A stretch of 64,000 nt of DNA from Candidatus Omnitrophota bacterium (GTDB taxonomy: Bacteria; Ratteibacteria; UBA8468; B48-G9; JAFGKM01): NCBI GenBank assembly GCA_023819375.1, contig JAMWDI010000001.1, positions 107,685-171,684 of the forward strand, written 5' to 3'. Under the pieces are notes generated by a model. That model did no database searches and had not been told where the DNA came from. It saw only the letters and a list, made by a program, of their open reading frames with translations. Shown here piece after piece: positions 3,674 to 21,995 of the stretch (its first letter is position 1; each line of letters begins with the position of its first letter). The position numbers were made by a program, and so were the translations under genes.

Positions 3674-4585
3674 TTAAACATATTCAAGCATCCTCTCAAG
3701 CGATACTTTTGCTTTCTCTAAAATATCTGGTTTTAAATTTATCTCATATTTTTCTTCTTTCAAAGATAAATATAATTTTTCAATTGTTATCTTTTTCATA
3801 TTTGGACATATTTTACCAGAACCAAGCGAATAAAATTCTTTCTCAGGATTTTCTTTTTTAAGTCTATGCAATAATCCTTCTTCTGTTCCTATTATAAATA
3901 TTTTTGAGTTTGACTCTTTTGCTCTTTTTAACATACCAGAAGTTGAATATATACCATCTGCAAGTTTTTGAATTTCTGGGTCACATTCAGGATGAACAAT
4001 TATTTCAGCATTTGGATATTTTTCCCTTGCTTTTTTTACCTCTTCTACAGTAAATTTTCTATGAACAAAACAATAACCATCCCAACATATTATCTCTTTT
4101 TCAGAAACTTTTTGCTTCACATACCAACACAGGTTTTTATCAGGCAAAAATATAATTTTCTTTGCAGGAACATTTCTTACAACTATATCAGCATTTGCAC
4201 TTGTACAACAAACATCTGATATACTTTTAACATCTGCATTTGTATTTACATAGGAAACAATCCAGGCATCAGGATATTTTTCTTTCATCTTTAAAACATC
4301 TTGGTATTTTGCCATATCTGCCAAAGGACATCCAGCATCTAAATCTGGAAGTAAAACTTTTTTATCAGGTGATAATATTTTTGCTGTTTCAGCCATAAAT
4401 TTAACTCCACAAAATACAATAATTTTTGCATCTTTAACTTGGCTTGCCTTTCTTGCAAGTTCAAGAGAATCACCAACAAAATCAGCCAAATCCTGAATTT
4501 CTGGAATTTGATAATTATGGGCAAGAATTATTGCTTCTTTTTCTTTTTTTAATCTTAAAATTTCCTCAATCATTTCTTCTCCCAA
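3674..4585 (-). CDS. nadA: Quinolinate synthase
   Basis: 303 aa with NadA-typical length and conserved blocks (ILAHNYQ, VHPEC, Cys ligands). Confidence 0.8.
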   Translation of the reverse strand: MGEEMIEEILRLKKEKEAIILAHNYQIPEIQDLADFVGDSLELARKASQVKDAKIIVFCGVKFMAETAKILSPDKKVLLPDLDAGCPLADMAKYQDVLKMKEKYPDAWIVSYVNTNADVKSISDVCCTSANADIVVRNVPAKKIIFLPDKNLCWYVKQKVSEKEIICWDGYCFVHRKFTVEEVKKAREKYPNAEIIVHPECDPEIQKLADGIYSTSGMLKRAKESNSKIFIIGTEEGLLHRLKKENPEKEFYSLGSGKICPNMKKITIEKLYLSLKEEKYEINLKPDILEKAKVSLERMLEYV

Positions 4586-5739
4586 AATGGACTCATTTTT
4601 CTTAATTTTTCAACTATCTTTGGTAATACATCAAGAACTTTATCAACATCTTCTTCTTTATTATATTTACCAAGGGAAAACCTTAAAGAACCATGCGCGA
4701 TTTCAGGTGGAATTCCAATTGCAAGTAAAACATGACTTGGTTCAAGTGAACCAGATGTACATGCAGAACCACTTGAAGCATAAATTTTTTCAAAATCAAG
4801 ATTTAAAAGAATACTTTCTCCTTCAACATATTTAACACACAAATTTAATGTATTATATAAGCGATTTTCAGGATGTCCATTTATAATAATTTCAGGTATA
4901 TTTTCCATTATTCCTTTTTCAAGTTTATCTCTTAAATATTTCACCTTCTTTGCCTCTTCTTCCATTTCTTCTTTTGCTATCTCGCAGGCTTTTCCAAGAC
5001 CTATAATACCTGGAACATTATAAGTCCCTCCTCTTTTTCCTTTCTCCTGTTCTCCACCGTGAATAAATGTCTCAATTTTTGTTCCTTTTTTTATATAAAT
5101 TGCTCCAACTCCTTTGGGACCATAAAATTTATGTGCAGATAAAGAAATTATATCAACTCCAAGTTTTTTCACAGAAACAGGAATTTTGCCAACTGTCTGA
5201 ACACAATCTGAGTGAAAATATATACCATTTTCTTTTGCTATTTTTGCTATTTCTTCAATTGGCTGGATTGTTCCTATCTCATTATTTGCATGCATTATTG
5301 TTATTAAAATTGTTTCTTTTTTAATTGATTTTCTTATAAAATCAACATCAACAACTCCATATTTATCAACTGGTGCATATGTAATTTCATATCCAATTTT
5401 ACTTAAAAATTTACAGGTATTCAAAACAGCATGATGCTCTATCTGACTTGTAATTATATGATTTCCTTTATTTTTTAAAGCAAAAGATATTCCCTTTATA
5501 GCCCAGTTATCACTTTCTGTCCCTCCAGAAGTAAAGAATATTTCTTCTGGTTCTGCATCAATCAATTCTGCAACTTTCTGCCTTGCTTTTTCTATTTCTT
5601 TTTTATTTTCTCTTGCTATTTCATAAATTGAACTGGGATTTCCAAATTTTTCAAAAAAATAATCTTTCATAACTTCTAAAACCCTCGGATCCGTTGGTGT
5701 TGTCGCATTATAGTCCATATAAATTGTTTTATTTTCCAT
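4570..5739 (-). CDS. iscS: Cysteine desulfurase (NifS/IscS class, PLP-dependent)
   Basis: 389 aa. PLP-lysine region SLSAHKFYGPKGVGAIYI and active-site loop SSGSACTSG. Overlaps nadA by 16 nt. Confidence 0.85.
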   Translation of the reverse strand: MENKTIYMDYNATTPTDPRVLEVMKDYFFEKFGNPSSIYEIARENKKEIEKARQKVAELIDAEPEEIFFTSGGTESDNWAIKGISFALKNKGNHIITSQIEHHAVLNTCKFLSKIGYEITYAPVDKYGVVDVDFIRKSIKKETILITIMHANNEIGTIQPIEEIAKIAKENGIYFHSDCVQTVGKIPVSVKKLGVDIISLSAHKFYGPKGVGAIYIKKGTKIETFIHGGEQEKGKRGGTYNVPGIIGLGKACEIAKEEMEEEAKKVKYLRDKLEKGIMENIPEIIINGHPENRLYNTLNLCVKYVEGESILLNLDFEKIYASSGSACTSGSLEPSHVLLAIGIPPEIAHGSLRFSLGKYNKEEDVDKVLDVLPKIVEKLRKMSPFWEKK

Positions 5740-5748
5740 TTTTAAATT

Positions 5749-6153
5749 TTAAATGGTTGATATCATTGCATTCGTTGGACATCCCTTTATGCATAATTCA
5801 CATGCAATACATTTTTCTGGTTCAAATTTAACTTCATATGTATTTCTATTAAGGTATAAAGCCCCTGTTGGACACAAAGCAATACAAACTGAGCAATCCG
5901 TACATCTTTCTTTTATCATTCTTATATCACTCTCTATTAGTTGAATTTTTACTCCTTTACTTTTTAATTCTTCTACCGCATCAAAAACATTTTTTTCTTC
6001 TCCTGAAAAAGCAATTACAAGTGTTCCTTCCTCTTCAGGAGAGACAAAGGCTTTTAAAATGTTAAATTCAAGATTGTATTTCCTCACAATAGTTGAAATT
6101 ATTGGCTTATCAACTAAAACTGGCGGGAAATGCATTACAAATTTTTTTTCCAT
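5749..6153 (-). CDS. NIL-domain / 2x[4Fe-4S] ferredoxin fusion protein (homocysteine biosynthesis partner type)
   Basis: 134 aa. N-terminal NIL domain (LEFNILKA) followed by two CxxCxxCxxxCP ferredoxin motifs. Sits directly downstream of the DUF39 gene, the classic pairing. Confidence 0.7.
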   Translation of the reverse strand: MEKKFVMHFPPVLVDKPIISTIVRKYNLEFNILKAFVSPEEEGTLVIAFSGEEKNVFDAVEELKSKGVKIQLIESDIRMIKERCTDCSVCIALCPTGALYLNRNTYEVKFEPEKCIACELCIKGCPTNAMISTI

Positions 6154-6154
6154 A

Positions 6155-7348
6155 TTATACCTCCTTCATTGGTTTAAATTTATATCCTGATTCTGGACCA
6201 GGGAAATAGAAAATTGGTTCAGTTAATAAAAATTCACCACTTTCAATCCACTTTTTTAAAATTTCTGCTATTTCTTTTGCCTTTTTATAACTTGACAGAG
6301 AACCGGTTGGAATTTCTTTTCCCATCAATTTTATCTTCCCACTTTTCAGTTGTGAGTAATTTACATAATCTAAAATATTTCCTGTTGAATTTGGATAATC
6401 ATAACTGTAATCAACTACAGGTGCATAAATCTCTTCATCAGGTATACTTACCCAATTTAATATTTCTTCATTCAAAATTGGTATTGGAATACCAACACCA
6501 ACTATTAAACTCGTTCCATATCCTGTTAAACTTGCTCCTTTTAAAAATTCTACTTTCATCTGTTTTAAATCACCAATTAAAGCAAGCGTTGCTCCAGGAA
6601 TAGTAGGTACTCCATTTTCCCTTCGTTTTACACCTGGATTATATTGAGTCCCCCACCAACAAACATACCCAATCCCTCCTCCAAGAAAAATCCTTGTCCC
6701 AAATCCAATAGTTTTCAAATATGGATCTTTTAAAAGTGGTGATAATTGCCCTGCTGAACAATAATTTGCATTTCCGAGATTTGGTTTTAAGACTCCCATG
6801 TAAGTATAAATTGTTTTATTTGAAAGATTGACTGCAACATTATAATTCTGATAACAATTTCTTGGATTAAAAAGTATTGCTTCATTTATATCATTTATTG
6901 TAATTTTTGTCTTTAAATATTTTTTTGGATAACAGTCAGTGCCATATGCATAGGCAACAAGTTCAATTTCTTTTCCACTTACTAAATCTTCAATTACATG
7001 TCCACCACCATATTTAAACTCGCCTGGATATTTAGTATTCCTTGGATCATCATCTGGCAAAGCAGTCGCTCCAAGATAAACATCAACAGCAGCAAGTCCA
7101 GAATAAGCAGGGACATTATTTAAATATACTCTTCCTCCACCCATTTTGATTTTTTCTTTTGAATGACCAAAATTTAAAAATACACCAGAAGAACACATAG
7201 GGCCAAAAGTTCCAGTTGTTACAACATCTACCTCTTTTGCGAGTTTTTTAACATTTGTAGATTTTTTTAATTCAATTATTTCATCTGCTGTTAAAACTAC
7301 TACTTCTCCTCTTTTTATTTTTTCATTTATTTCTCTTATCGTTTTCAT
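6155..7348 (-). CDS. DUF39/COG1900 homocysteine biosynthesis protein (putative aspartate-semialdehyde sulfurtransferase)
   Basis: 397 aa. GTFGPMCSSG-type glycine-rich core. Adjacent to a NIL-ferredoxin gene and between cysK and the cysteine desulfurase. Confidence 0.6.
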   Translation of the reverse strand: MKTIREINEKIKRGEVVVLTADEIIELKKSTNVKKLAKEVDVVTTGTFGPMCSSGVFLNFGHSKEKIKMGGGRVYLNNVPAYSGLAAVDVYLGATALPDDDPRNTKYPGEFKYGGGHVIEDLVSGKEIELVAYAYGTDCYPKKYLKTKITINDINEAILFNPRNCYQNYNVAVNLSNKTIYTYMGVLKPNLGNANYCSAGQLSPLLKDPYLKTIGFGTRIFLGGGIGYVCWWGTQYNPGVKRRENGVPTIPGATLALIGDLKQMKVEFLKGASLTGYGTSLIVGVGIPIPILNEEILNWVSIPDEEIYAPVVDYSYDYPNSTGNILDYVNYSQLKSGKIKLMGKEIPTGSLSSYKKAKEIAEILKKWIESGEFLLTEPIFYFPGPESGYKFKPMKEV

Positions 7349-7360
7349 TTTTAACTCCTT

Positions 7361-8272
7361 TTAAAAAACTGATAGATACCTTTCACCTGTGTCTGGCAAA
7401 ATAACAACTATTATTTTACCACTATTTTCTTTTCTTTTCCCAATCTTTATTGCAGCAAAAGTAGCAGCACCTGATGAAATTCCACATAATATCCCTTCTT
7501 CTCTTGCTAATCTTTTTGCTGTCTCTATTGCATTCTCGTCGGATACTTTTATTATTTCATCAATTACTTTTAAATTCAATACATCTGGTATAAAACCAGC
7601 ACCGATACCTTGAATTTTATGTCTTCCTGAAAACCCTCCAGATAAAACAGGAGATTTTTCTGGTTCAACAGCAACAATTTTTACATCTTTTTTCCTCTGT
7701 TTTAGCACCTCTCCTACGCCAGTTATTGTTCCTCCAGTCCCTACCCCAGCCACAAATATATCAATTTTCCCATCTGTATCTCTCCATATTTCTTCTGCGG
7801 TTGTCTTTCTATGTATCTCTGGATTTGCTGGATTTTTAAACTGTTGCGGCATAAACGAATTTTTATATTTTTTTAACAATTCTTCTGCTTTTTTTACTGC
7901 TCCTGTCATACCTTCATCTGCTGGTGTTAATACAATTTCAGCACCAAACAAAGATAATAATTTCCTTCTCTCTATACTCATACTCTCTGGCATTGTTAAA
8001 ATTAATTTATATCCTCTTTGTGCACATACAAAAGCAAGACCAATCCCAGTATTTCCACTTGTTGGTTCAATTATAACTGTATCTTTATTTATAAGTCCTT
8101 TTTTTTCAGCATCTTCAATCATACTTACTGCAATCCTATCTTTTACTGAACCACATGGGTTAAAAAATTCAAGTTTTGCATAAATCTCTGCGTAACATCC
8201 TTTCACAACTTTATTCAATTTTACAAGTGGAGTATTCCCAATCAATTCTGTTATATCCTTTGCAAATTTCAT
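7361..8272 (-). CDS. cysK: Cysteine synthase / O-acetylserine sulfhydrylase family (PLP-dependent)
   Basis: Track ORF 7361..8326; I prefer the ATG at 8272 ([19 protein letters not shown]), which has a GGGGAG Shine-Dalgarno 6-10 nt upstream. PLP-binding SVKDR, glycine loop [10 protein letters not shown]. Confidence 0.8.
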
Positions 8273-8288
8273 AAATTTCTCCCCATTT

Positions 8289-8738
8289 TTAGATTTCGTA
8301 AAAGATAACTTTTTTGTCTCTTTCATTCAATTCTTTTTGCTTTTTTATTAATTCATCTAGAGTTATATTATCAAGATATTCCAAAATTTTTTCTTTTATA
8401 TTACACCATAATTTTCTCGCCACACATATTTCACTTCTTTCACATATTTTGCTTTTTTCAACACATTCCGTTGGAGATATTGTGCCTTCAAGGATTTCAA
8501 TTATTTCTTTAATTTTAATTTCTGATGGATCTCTCAAAAAAGCATATCCTCCCTTGCCACCTTTTGCACTTCTTAAAATTCCTGCTTTTTTCAATGTAAG
8601 CATAATATGCTCAAGATATCTTTCTGATAAATTCTGCCTTTTTGCAATATCTTTAACAAAAATTGGTTTTCCTTTATAATAAACTCCAAGATCTATTAAT
8701 GCTCTTAATCCATACCTTGTTCTTGTTGAAATTTTCAT
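8289..8738 (-). CDS. Rrf2-family transcriptional regulator (IscR/NsrR-like, probable Fe-S sensor)
   Basis: 149 aa. N-terminal HTH ([11 protein letters not shown]), C-x6-C-x5-C cluster ([14 protein letters not shown]) matching the cluster-ligand spacing of Fe-S Rrf2 proteins. First gene of the operon. Confidence 0.85.
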
Positions 8739-8744
8739 TTTAGT

Positions 8745-8804
8745 TATTTATTATTTTTGTTATCATATTACTAATATTATACTTAAAATTTTAAAAAATG
8801 TCAA
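8745..8804 (-). promoter_or_regulatory. Consensus promoter (TTGACA, 17 nt, TATAAT) plus candidate operator for the Rrf2-led operon
   Basis: Minus strand: TTGACA (8804..8799), 17-nt spacer, TATAAT (8781..8776), then ATTAGTAATATGATAACAAAAATAATAAA. Contains the inverted repeat ATATTA-G-TAATAT. The same block recurs upstream of hcp. Confidence 0.55.
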
Positions 8805-9033
8805 ATTTTTTTCTTCCAATTAATTCCTTCCATTTTTTCTCGCCTATACATTCTTTTGCATATTTACACCAGTCAATACAGGATGGCATTTCTCTATAAA
8901 CATAACTTTTACACTTTGGACATCTTGTTCTTACTTCATCACTAAATATTTCAACTTCATATCCACATTTTTCACATTTTTTAACTTCAACTTTTAAAAA
9001 TCTTGGGTCTATTCCAGGACATTTCATAACCAA
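8791..9033 (-). CDS. Small Cys-rich zinc-ribbon/rubredoxin-like protein
   Basis: 80 aa with 8 Cys including CEKCGY and CPKC pairs. Overlaps the upstream ferredoxin-domain gene by 10 nt; last gene of the hcp operon. Confidence 0.4.
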   Translation of the reverse strand: MVMKCPGIDPRFLKVEVKKCEKCGYEVEIFSDEVRTRCPKCKSYVYREMPSCIDWCKYAKECIGEKKWKELIGRKKFDIF

Positions 9034-9854
9034 CCTTCCTCTAATATTTCTCCCTTTAAACTTATTACAACTTTTTTTATAGGAATTTTCTTACCACTTT
9101 TTTTAACCCCTTCTTCAACTATTTTCAAAAGACCACTGCAACAAGGAACTTCCATTATAGCAACTGTTATTGTATTTATATTGTTATTAGTAACTATTTG
9201 ACTTATTTTTTCTATATATCTATCAATACCTGTATCAAGTTTAGGGCAGGCAATTATAATTGTTTTCCCTTTTATAAAATCATTATGAAAATTACCATAT
9301 GAATATGCGGTGCAGTCAGCAGCAAAAAGCAAATCCACCTTTTTAAAATATGGAGCAGATGGACTTACAAGATGAAGTTGTATTGGCCATTGTTTAAGTT
9401 GAGATTTAATTTCTACATTTGGTTTACTCTCTTCAGTTTCTTCTCTTCTATCAACAATTTTCACTCCGGGACAACATGAAACTTCAAAAATTTCTGATAT
9501 GTCTATCTCAATATTTTTTTCTTTTAATACCTCAAGTGCCTGTTTTAGATATTCTGTTTCACCATGTTCTTTCAAATGTTTTAAATGAGCAATAATCGTA
9601 TTTTTCCCTTTTTTTATTATATTTTCCATTGTCTTTTTCTCATCATACTCTTCTGCTTCTTTTTCAACAATTTTTATTGCACCAACCGGACAACTACCGA
9701 TACAAGCACCAAGTCCATCACAAAATAAATCACTTATAAGTCGTGCTTTTCCATCTATAATCTGTAATGCACCTTCTGGACAATTGGGGATACACTTTCC
9801 ACATCCAGTACATTTTTCCTCATCAATTTCAATAATTTTTCTTTTCATAAACAC
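9024..9854 (-). CDS. 4Fe-4S dicluster ferredoxin-domain protein (putative Hcp redox partner)
   Basis: 276 aa. N-terminal CTGCGKCIPNCP and CDGLGACIGSCP motifs; C-terminal domain with CCPG and CCSG pairs. Immediately downstream of hcp. Confidence 0.55.
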   Translation of the reverse strand: MFMKRKIIEIDEEKCTGCGKCIPNCPEGALQIIDGKARLISDLFCDGLGACIGSCPVGAIKIVEKEAEEYDEKKTMENIIKKGKNTIIAHLKHLKEHGETEYLKQALEVLKEKNIEIDISEIFEVSCCPGVKIVDRREETEESKPNVEIKSQLKQWPIQLHLVSPSAPYFKKVDLLFAADCTAYSYGNFHNDFIKGKTIIIACPKLDTGIDRYIEKISQIVTNNNINTITVAIMEVPCCSGLLKIVEEGVKKSGKKIPIKKVVISLKGEILEEGWL

Positions 9855-9857
9855 CCC

Positions 9858-11162
9858 CTATTTTAAAATTTCCTTTAAATCCTTTTCTGGTTCTTCAACA
9901 AGTTTTAAATTAAATTCACTTACCAAATATTTTAAAATTTCTTCATTTATCCATGCAGGTATAATTGGACCTATTCTAATCCCTTTAATTCCAAGATATA
10001 ATAAAGACCATAAAATCGCTACTGCTTTCTGTTCCATCCACATTAAAAAATAAGAAACAGGTAAATCATTAATATCTTTAACATTAAAAAGTTCTGCCAA
10101 AGAAGAGATTATATCTATTCCAACTATTGCATCATTACACTGGCCTATATCTATAAGTCGTGGTACCCCTTCAATATCACCAAGAGCCAAATCATTAAAT
10201 CTAAATTTTCCACAAGCAAGAGTTATTACAATTGTATCCTTTGGTAATATTTCAACAAGTTTTCTAAAATATTCATTTTTATTTGTAGGACTATCACATC
10301 CTCCAATAACAAAAACTCTTCTTATTTTACCGTTTTCTATCAGTTCCTTTATTTTTTCTTTTGAAGACAAAATTGATGATAAAGAAAAACCAGTTGTTAA
10401 AATAGTATCTCCATTTTTTTCAGGTAAATCAGGTAATGTTTTTGCTTTTTCAATGACCTCTGAAAAATCATATCCAGTTATATGTTTAACTTCTGGAAGT
10501 CCTACAATGCCTGTTGTAAAAATTCTATCTTTATATTCATCTTTTGGAATTAAAACACAATTGGAACTTCCAACAATACAAGCAGGAATTTCTGAAAATA
10601 ATTTTTTCTGGTCATACCATGCCTTTCCCAAATTTCCAATAAGATTATCATATTTTCTTATGCCTGGATATCCATGAGCAGGTAAAAGTTCTGAATGAGT
10701 ATAAACATTTATTCCTTTATCTTTGGATTGTTTTAAAATTTCCTCAAGAACTTTTAAACTATGACCTGTAACTATTATACCTTTCCCTTTTCTTGTTCCT
10801 GTAAATACTTCAACTGACTCTGGTTCTCCATATGTTTCAATATGTGCTTTTTTTAACAATTTCATTGTTTCTATATTTATTTTTCCAATATCAAGGGCAA
10901 GTTTAATAAATTTTTCAGTATCAAAATTCACATTTGTTAATGTTGAATATAAAGTTTCAACAAGAAATTTCTCAAGTTTACTGTTTCTATATCCAAGTTC
11001 AGATGCATGATAAAGATAAGCACTTATACCTTTAAGACCAAAAATTAAATTATCCTGCAATCTTGATAATGTTGGACTTTTACCACATACACCATAATTT
11101 ATACATCCTTTTCCCTGACTTGTTTGACTACACTGATAACAAAACATTTTAAAATCTGCCAT
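9858..11162 (-). CDS. hcp: Hybrid cluster protein (prismane; hydroxylamine reductase)
   Basis: 434 aa. Hallmark N-terminal MFCYQCSQT...GC motif and multiple conserved Cys/His/Glu ligand blocks. GGAGG Shine-Dalgarno upstream. Confidence 0.85.
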
Positions 11163-11167
11163 ATTTC

Positions 11168-11228
11168 CTCCTTTTATTACTTTTATTATCGTTTTACTAA
11201 TATTACATTAAATTTATTTTTTTGTCAA
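11168..11228 (-). promoter_or_regulatory. Promoter (TTGACA, 17 nt, TAATAT) plus candidate Rrf2-type operator upstream of hcp
   Basis: Minus strand: TTGACA (11228..11223), 17-nt spacer, TAATAT (11205..11200), then TAGTAAAACGATAATAAAAGTAATAAA and GGAGG. The downstream block matches the Rrf2-operon element at 29 of 33 aligned positions. Confidence 0.5.
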
Positions 11229-21911: not shown

Positions 21912-21995
21912 GCCGAAGTGGCGGAATGGAAGACGCGCCAGGTTCAGGACCTGGTGAGGTAAAACCTCGTAGGGGTTCAAATCCCCTCTTCGGCA
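21912..21995 (+). tRNA. tRNA-Leu (anticodon CAG), class II with long variable arm
   Basis: Manual cloverleaf: acceptor GCCGAAG/CTTCGGC, D-stem GCG/CGC, anticodon stem CCAGG/CCTGG with loop TTCAGGA (anticodon CAG, G37), variable arm TGAGGTAAAACCTCGTA, T-arm AGGGG-TTCAAAT-CCCCT, discriminator A. No encoded 3' CCA. Confidence 0.8.

Follow-up and report, generated by a model that had tools for sequence, protein, structure and literature searches.

The stretch of DNA analysed here, 64,000 nucleotides (nt) from a Candidatus Omnitrophota bacterium (contig JAMWDI010000001.1) and referred to below as the window, carries on its minus strand a genuine three-gene operon, in which hcp, the gene for a hybrid cluster protein (Hcp), is followed by that for an iron-sulfur (Fe-S) protein resembling FrdX, hereafter the partner, and by a third for a small protein with eight cysteines (Cys), hereafter the mini-protein. 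This is seen in the identities of the genes, their tight packing, their linkage elsewhere, fusions and a shared promoter motif. We read the operon as a nitric oxide (NO) detoxification, or nitrosative-stress, cassette of an Omnitrophota-type anaerobe, controlled by an Rrf2 regulator and equipped with an electron-transfer module of its own, a reading to which we give slightly better than even odds (roughly 0.55) and for which we infer the cluster types, the direction of electron flow, the physical complex and the pairing of regulator with operator.

In the mechanism that we propose, the class III Hcp would reduce NO or hydroxylamine, with the FrdX-type protein serving as a dedicated low-potential electron relay to it, a position taken in class II systems by the NADH-dependent Hcr. 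The mini-protein would be a subunit or adaptor of the FrdX-type protein, serving either as one more point at which electrons enter or leave or as a metal module that stabilises it. The hcp operon would be controlled at an operator that overlaps the -10 region, the same operator being carried by the promoter of the adjacent gene for a three-Cys Rrf2 protein. On NO or Fe-S damage, Hcp and its reductase module would be induced together with the genes for cysteine and Fe-S supply, which are needed after NO damage. What is modestly new is the triad of class III Hcp, FrdX-type protein and mini-protein, the shared operator of Rrf2 type, and the first contextual description of the mini-protein family; a known association of hcp with its partner is refined, and current views are not overturned.

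The operon and its Hcp

The three genes are as follows, lengths being in amino acids (aa) and the supporting evidence in brackets.

9858..11162, minus strand: hcp, class III hybrid cluster protein, 434 aa (Pfam Prismane, TIGR01703, structure 7e0l)
9024..9848, minus strand: FrdX-type Fe-S partner, 274 aa (homolog lengths, conservation, AlphaFold2 model)
8791..9027, minus strand: 8-Cys mini-protein, 78 aa (ATGA overlap with the partner stop, eight invariant Cys, AlphaFold2)

The list of open reading frames (ORFs) has these as three consecutive minus-strand frames, 11162..9858 (434 aa), 9854..9024 (276 aa, from GTG) and 9033..8791 (80 aa, from TTG), and for such mechanically called frames the places, the 3-nt gap and the 10-nt overlap given in an earlier note on this DNA were correct. 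Other starts are likelier. An ATG at 9848, with GGGGGTG just before it, opens a 274-aa frame for the partner, whose closest homologs are 274 aa long, and we take it as the likelier start than the GTG at 9854; for the mini-protein the ATG at 9027 (78 aa) is likewise preferred to the TTG of the 80-aa ORF, a database protein 100% identical to it (P0121, from a 368-kb contig of a Candidatus Omnitrophica metagenome-assembled genome) being 78 aa long. With these starts the gap between hcp and partner becomes 9 nt and the overlap between partner and mini-protein a 4-nt ATGA, a start/stop overlap of the kind typical of translational coupling. A single predicted promoter lies upstream of hcp, and terminator-like sites were found neither inside the three genes, nor directly after them, nor between the mini-protein gene and rrf2. 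These are real genes rather than chance ORFs, because Hcp scores 615 bits against TIGR01703 (cut-off 361), the partner family comprises 656 clusters (at 50% identity and E<=1e-30, from an exhaustive search over 1.84 billion cluster representatives) and the mini-protein family 2,327 (from a profile search, clustered at 90% identity). Being compact and translationally coupled, the cassette could be expressed as it stands to ask whether the FrdX-type protein, with or without the mini-protein, is the donor to Hcp.

The window Hcp also scores 382 bits against Pfam Prismane PF03063 (cut-off 27). Its residues 3-433 align over the full length of the class III structure 7e0l (605 bits), while class I and II structures align with it only from query residue ~30 to their residue 142; relative to class I it has a deletion of ~110 residues, and the N-terminal insertion of class II is not present. 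The N-terminal cubane motif, C8x2C11x8C20x5C26, has a spacing that we take to be of the class I/III type. The end-to-end alignment with 7e0l, the partial alignments with the other classes and the cubane motif together therefore assign it to class III. The enzyme is described in the established literature as an NO/hydroxylamine reductase, which the window Hcp would be too. Hcp is homologous to carbon monoxide dehydrogenase (CODH), class III Hcp being a CODH-like homodimer (PMC10502027). The physiological electron donor of class I and III enzymes has been stated to be unknown, their genes being mostly isolated (PMC10210160), and in one survey 75% of class III hcp genes had no neighbours (bioRxiv 10.1101/2025.09.14.676152). 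Because class I and III genes are mostly isolated, a class III hcp with an FrdX-type partner represents a less common situation and no new principle.

The FrdX-type partner and the mini-protein

The partner consists of three parts, listed here in order from its N-terminus.

9651..9848, minus strand: N-terminal ferredoxin domain, residues 1-66, seven conserved Cys (Pfam Fer4/Fer4_6/Fer4_10, Foldseek)
9414..9650, minus strand: helical linker, residues 67-122, with a lower-confidence loop C125-C126-P-G (AlphaFold2, conservation)
9027..9413, minus strand: C-terminal alpha/beta domain, residues 146-274, PF27217 'AF_0155' in homologs (homolog hits, conservation)

Where two N-terminal 4Fe-4S motifs had been proposed, one is canonical (C13xxC16xxC19xxxC23P) but the second has only three Cys (C43x5C49x3C53P), in a domain that Foldseek matches to 2x[4Fe-4S] ferredoxin modules such as 5t5i_G (root-mean-square deviation 1.2 Å). 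The AlphaFold2 model has a mean predicted local distance difference test score (pLDDT) of 92.8, with helices at residues 70-121 and values down to 63-77 at residues 120-140. Two Cys pairs had also been pointed out further along the chain. The second of them, C236-C237 (PCC), is conserved, but CCPG is widely kept only in its second Cys and its Pro, P127 in at least 90% of homologs and the preceding C126 in most. In the C-terminal domain the Cys sit at the ends of three parallel strands, as C179 (ADC), C201 (CPKLD) and C236-C237, and across the homolog alignment C179, C201 and C237 are invariant and C236 nearly so. The conserved Cys, seven in the ferredoxin domain, one in the loop and four in the C-terminal domain, would probably hold three four-Cys Fe-S clusters, if C126 supplies the missing ligand.

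A scan of the window partner with a Pfam set that lacks PF27217 returns Fer4-type domains only, and scans with Pfam and NCBIfam-type models found in it no FAD/NAD or [2Fe-2S] reductase domain, so that the arrangement does differ from hcp-hcr, as had been proposed. The partner is near certain to belong to PF27217, judging from precomputed hits on all its homologs of 59-95% identity. No convincing solved relative of the C-terminal domain emerged from Foldseek against the PDB or from a profile search of PDB sequences, and other Pfam families at E<=10 gave only scattered noise. A beta-carbonic-anhydrase or SIS-like fold was set aside, the Foldseek matches being weak (template modelling score 0.2-0.3), and LdpA_C, considered because the N-terminus also weakly matches LdpA_Fe-S-bd, was rejected as unsupported (faint, E 0.12, in 1 of 30 members). 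The family also contains two odd variants: P0305 (659 aa), of eukaryote-like look, has the partner behind a hydrophobic region and a RING-H2-like finger, and in P0264 (395 aa) the linker is interrupted by a long repeat rich in Cys, His and Asp (ECDCHDTSDE...).

The earlier note called the partner unusual, which it is not, because it belongs to a large and widespread family, combining PF27217 with a ferredoxin domain, whose context matches the known association of hcp with frdX. Of the two proteins for which profile searches had been suggested, the mini-protein alone falls in no Pfam or NCBIfam family; the partner has a Fer4-type domain and, in its homologs, PF27217, and its frdX-like context is known in the literature (PMC545781, PMC1274295). 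Numerous phyla of both bacteria and archaea are represented among the 656 clusters. When one genome was scanned for each species, 521 relatives turned up, the best 80 of which were analysed; these span Bacteroidota, Chlorobiota, Omnitrophota, Planctomycetota, Acidobacteriota, Spirochaetota, Bacillota, methanogens and other archaea and include no Desulfovibrio or Clostridioides, names that were also missing from the 10 cluster representatives looked up. With hcp searched within 6 kb and all neighbouring ORFs clustered, hcp lies by the partner in 26 of the 80 genomes, nearly always as its direct neighbour and in the same orientation (19 class I-sized and 7 class III-sized). An Rrf2 regulator is encoded directly upstream of the partner in 27/80, with the three-Cys cluster motif in 24 of these 27, and a Crp/Fnr regulator beside it in 18/80, nearly always upstream and on the opposite strand. 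By a tighter count, 16 of the 26 hcp-linked loci also have Rrf2 and 3 have Crp/Fnr, which points to control of partner-hcp pairs by Rrf2-type regulators more often than by the HcpR type. Seven loci have palindromes resembling FNR/HcpR sites (TTGAY-N4-RTCAA) at 58-79 nt upstream of the partner; with all such sites counted, the figure is 9 of 77 partner loci against 2.1% of background windows. A small cupin gene lies downstream of the partner in 17/80 genomes; a cupin gene adjoining hcp is also NO-induced in D. desulfuricans (Ddes_1828, PMC5701242).

In 2004/2005 Rodionov et al. gave the name frdX to a hypothetical ferredoxin-like gene that, in delta-proteobacteria and Clostridium, is linked in position to hcp and has HcpR sites in front of it, and a functional tie to Hcp was suggested for its product, as for Hcr (PMC545781, PMC1274295). 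NO induces both frdX and hcp about 200-fold in C. difficile, the figure for frdX being about 220-fold, and knock-down of either causes NO sensitivity, although the function of FrdX is still called unclear there (PMC12915319); induction by NO or nitrite, or a role in NO tolerance, is on record for frdX of C. difficile and D. vulgaris (PMC12915319, PMC1274295). A ferredoxin-like Fe-S gene beside hcp is what is found in the window and in the 26 genomes. A further point of contact is Roseburia sp. 831b (RefSeq), where the gene order is hcp, Crp/Fnr and then a '4Fe-4S binding protein' with which the partner aligns in both of its domains (41% identity, 88% query coverage). Holophaga foetida is another culturable carrier of the partner. 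The partner thus matches the FrdX kind closely, its putative membership resting on context and this Clostridial proxy. HcpR-type control was not seen at the window operon, where no Crp/Fnr gene adjoins and an Rrf2 gene and a different motif are found instead, and no FNR-like palindrome stands out on reading of the 77-nt hcp upstream region, of which no pattern scan was made.

The mini-protein had been described as having eight Cys in zinc-ribbon- or rubredoxin-like pairs, and this holds well: C3, C18, C21, C36, C39, C50, C54 and C60 are all invariant in 61 homologs, in the pattern C3(PG), C18xxC21, C36xxC39, C50x3C54x5C60 with a conserved SCIDWC motif. In the AlphaFold2 model (pLDDT 84.9) four strands form a zinc ribbon, and helices follow at the C-terminus. 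Zinc-ribbon matches are all below threshold, rubredoxin PF00301 gives no match, and the only relatives found in the PDB are generic zinc ribbons. The sequence suggests a small metalloprotein whose zinc-ribbon site is rubredoxin-like and whose other four Cys make up a further site. Almost none of the 2,327 clusters has a Pfam hit, and the names given in the sources conflict (RpoP, S27E, NudC, Nop10, 'phosphohydrolase'); therefore just the generic zinc ribbon is being recognised. A Pfam scan finds no HD domain in the 78-aa protein despite the NCBI name 'phosphohydrolase', which probably stems from rare fusions such as that at positions 4995-5768 of metagenome locus L097, where an HD domain (PF01966, 42 bits) has the mini-domain attached at its N-terminus and an FrdX-type gene follows directly.

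The genomic context of the mini-protein was taken from 80 metagenome loci retrieved with it (L089-L168). The partner is immediately adjacent and on the same strand in 35 of these by a strict criterion and in 47 by clustering. The other neighbours are as follows (loci out of 80).

27: flavin-reductase and rubredoxin fusion (Hrb-like); 25: flavodiiron protein
18: Crp/Fnr regulator; 11: Rrf2 regulator
16: ferritin-like protein; 12: rubrerythrin-like protein; 12: NifS

At L128 (4296-6431) and about 25 other metagenome loci the order is Hrb-like fusion, mini-protein, flavodiiron protein, often with ferritin-like or rubrerythrin genes. Seen from the other side, the mini-protein occurs at only 3 of the 80 partner genome loci, all in Omnitrophota and two of them (L026, L076) in the order partner-mini-hcp. 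It stands beside the partner in all close relatives of the window organism; a Caldiserica contig has the order MarR-hcp(class III)-partner-mini-rubredoxin, Dehalococcoidales loci have a NifU-domain gene after the mini-protein, and in P0309 (342 aa) the mini-domain (residues 2-70, E 3e-15) is joined to a complete FrdX-type partner. The mini-protein is therefore an accessory of FrdX-type proteins and, more broadly, of the redox clusters for NO/O2 defence in anaerobes, and is not specific to hcp. Partners that have a mini-protein beside them mostly show a shorter helical linker and two Cys ahead of the P[SG] in the loop, the motif CC[PS][GSA] being present in 16 of 39 of them against 1 of 77 without; because these differences are confounded by phylogeny, they were not used as evidence of contact between the two proteins.

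A candidate operator and the neighbouring sulfur and Fe-S genes

The features around the operon that bear on its regulation are as follows.

11200..11228, minus strand: predicted hcp promoter, sigma-70-type TTGACA-17 nt-TAATAT, 10/12 consensus matches
11181..11205, minus strand: candidate operator TAATATTAGTAAaacGATAAtAAAA, overlapping the hcp -10 box and running downstream
8776..8804, minus strand: rrf2 promoter, perfect sigma-70-type TTGACA-17 nt-TATAAT, 12/12 consensus matches
8755..8779, minus strand: candidate operator, second copy TAATATTAGTAAtatGATAAcAAAA, at the rrf2 promoter
8289..8738, minus strand: Rrf2-family regulator, 149 aa, C92x6C99x5C105 (Pfam Rrf2)
4570..8326, minus strand: cysK, HcyBio (COG1900), NIL/Fer4 and nifS (model scans, synteny)

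The -35 box of the rrf2 promoter falls in the last codons of the mini-protein gene, and the relative L169 has the same promoter layout as the window upstream of hcp. At both promoters a 25-nt element, TAATATTAGTAAnnnGATAAnAAAA, overlaps the -10 box, and its pattern has just these two occurrences in the whole window, against 0.04 expected. In the relative L169/L170, whose partner is 81% identical, a related element, TATAATATTAnnAAnnGATAAT[AG]AAAGTAATAAA, is again present at both promoters, which is good comparative evidence for a putative common operator at the hcp and rrf2 promoters. We infer that the adjacent Rrf2 protein may be what binds this 25-nt candidate. That protein scores 133 bits against PF02082, with the Rrf2 fold and three clustered Cys present, and stays below the equivalog cut-offs for CymR (122 bits vs 195), IscR (112 vs 208) and NsrR (51 vs 182).

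Through the shared motif the cysK-HcyBio-NIL/Fer4-nifS genes are probably co-regulated with the hcp operon. HcyBio proteins of COG1900 act in homocysteine synthesis. The synteny rrf2-cysK-HcyBio-NIL/Fer4-nifS is kept in the relatives L169/L170 and L173/L174, with the partner and mini-protein genes next to or inside it, and relatives continue the cluster with NadA and NifU. In L173/L174 the order is Rrf2-partner-mini-cysK-HcyBio-NIL/Fer4-NifS-NadA-NifU, with hcp absent; in L171/L172 the partner and mini-protein genes lie between a peroxiredoxin gene and O-acetylhomoserine sulfhydrylase-cysK-metX-metW, again with no hcp. Near the operon an Rfam scan of the window detected neither a riboswitch nor any other RNA, and its sole match at the gathering threshold is a tRNA gene at 21912-21995 on the plus strand.

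Competing readings and known systems

The linkage of the partner to hcp, together with its Rrf2 and Crp/Fnr neighbours, makes a dedicated role in electron delivery reasonable, and to that extent the alternative electron-delivery module proposed in the earlier note is borne out; but the pair of partner and mini-protein also occurs without hcp in close relatives. Several observations weigh against the NO-detoxification cassette. Because close relatives carry it without hcp, the pair is not strictly Hcp-specific, and hcp is missing from the 6 kb around the partner at 54 of its 80 loci. Linkage to hcp across genomes is seen for the partner but not supported for the mini-protein, which has hcp at 5 of its 80 loci, is linked to the partner and to other NO/O2-stress redox genes, and is often accompanied by flavodiiron proteins in place of hcp. 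In the partner no NAD(P)H or flavin site can be recognised, and its suggested role as electron donor is drawn only from domains and context. Its PF27217 assignment comes indirectly, through homologs, and its FrdX-type label from context and not from alignment with DVU2544 or CDR20291_2075. P0309 is the sole mini-partner fusion seen and could be either a Rosetta-stone fusion or a gene-calling artefact.

The relatives that lack hcp would suit a different account, the main rival, which we consider unlikely but worth serious attention, in which the partner and mini-protein form a general redox module of an IscR/CymR-like Rrf2 regulon for sulfur and Fe-S metabolism, serving for example the HcyBio/NIL-ferredoxin homocysteine pathway or NifS/NifU cluster assembly, with hcp as a lineage-specific passenger. 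L173/L174 keep the pair in a cysK-HcyBio-NifS-NadA-NifU cluster without hcp, L171/L172 keep it beside peroxiredoxin and methionine-biosynthesis genes, NifS recurs near the mini-protein (12/80), as does a NifU-domain gene after it in Dehalococcoidales, and the window Rrf2 protein scores best against the CymR and IscR models. The association with sulfur genes is, however, confined to the Omnitrophota lineage of the window. Across the 80 species genomes the genes that recur beside the partner are those for Rrf2, Hcp, Crp/Fnr and cupin, whereas cysK and nifS each appear at fewer than 5 of 80 loci, and the phenotype of a C. difficile frdX knock-down is NO sensitivity (PMC12915319).

That phenotype would be equally expected from lost maturation of Hcp, and it is one reason for weighing an account that we regard as improbable. 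Here the partner, perhaps together with the mini-protein, would serve maturation or repair as a scaffold or carrier, either of the hybrid [4Fe-2S-2O] cluster or of Fe-S clusters that NO has damaged, and would not carry electrons. In favour of this are the C-terminal Cys4 alpha/beta domain, which is without a solved relative, and the Fe-S biogenesis genes nearby. The N-terminal domain is, however, a classical electron-transfer ferredoxin module, the partner has no ATPase or chaperone domain, and Hcp works where it is encoded alone, as class III genes mostly are (75% without neighbours; bioRxiv 10.1101/2025.09.14.676152).

Little probability likewise attaches to a role of the mini-protein outside the electron path, as a redox- or NO-sensing metal-thiolate switch modulating its neighbours. 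Its fusion to an HD-domain hydrolase directly upstream of a partner gene in L097, its presence in different stress clusters (FrdX-type or Hrb-flavodiiron-rubrerythrin) and its place next to Crp/Fnr or Rrf2 regulators speak for such a switch, but a DNA-binding or signalling output domain is missing from the mini-protein itself, its gene is translationally coupled to that of a redox protein, with which it is once (P0309) fused, and eight invariant Cys in two groups of four suit fixed metal sites. That the three genes are unrelated neighbours thrown together in a compact genome is very improbable, since, although the window is gene-dense and short gaps and overlaps are common in such genomes, the linkage recurs in distant phyla with the gene order shuffled, and a fusion protein and a shared promoter motif are found as well.

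The NO-detoxification cassette could also be extended, at the price of becoming unlikely, to a bolder form. The mini-protein, with one Fe/Zn(Cys)4 site like that of rubredoxin and another site of four Cys, would then represent a new class of small metalloprotein and be an obligate subunit of FrdX-type proteins; the pair would be the long-sought physiological reductase of class III (and class I) Hcp, and the mini-protein would in addition be an electron adaptor shared with Hrb/flavodiiron systems in the NO/O2 defence of anaerobes.

Among known systems, the closest to the NO-detoxification cassette is hcp-frdX of the HcpR regulon (Desulfovibrio, Desulfuromonas, Clostridium; in C. difficile as frdX-hcp-hcpR), which likewise has a ferredoxin-like Fe-S gene beside hcp and an NO-related regulator, the likeness being one of gene context in a comparison that did not include the named FrdX sequences. 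The window differs in that its regulator is of Rrf2 type and not a Crp/Fnr-type HcpR, its hcp is class III and not class I, and there is a third gene, for the mini-protein, and a link to a cluster for cysteine and Fe-S biogenesis. The hcp-hcr pair of E. coli and other gamma-proteobacteria, with a class II Hcp and an NADH:Hcp oxidoreductase, follows the same two-gene logic of an Hcp with its own electron-delivery protein and is also under NO-responsive control, in enterobacteria by the Rrf2 regulator NsrR; but Hcr combines FAD/NAD-binding and [2Fe-2S] domains, where the window partner has ferredoxin-type clusters and the AF_0155 domain and no flavin/NAD domain. In CooS-CooF, the Ni,Fe-CODH system, a polyferredoxin-type protein is similarly encoded beside the enzyme, CooF being a 4-cluster ferredoxin without an AF_0155-type domain, and substrate, metal site and regulation differ from those of the window system.

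Two further comparisons concern the mini-protein. The Moorella-type Hrb-FprA system, a high-molecular-weight rubredoxin with a flavodiiron NO/O2 reductase, also sets a reductase beside a terminal NO/O2 reductase; the likeness is to the second context of the mini-protein, found elsewhere, there being no Hrb-FprA genes in the window, and to our knowledge no third small Cys-rich component has been described for it. Rubredoxin and the zinc ribbons (FmdB/Zn_ribbon_8, RpoP, eS27) share with the mini-protein two CxxC knuckles on a small beta ribbon, whereas C3, C50, C54, C60 and the SCIDWC motif have no counterpart in those families. The mini-protein family is fairly large, is misnamed 'phosphohydrolase' and tracks the redox genes of NO/O2 stress.

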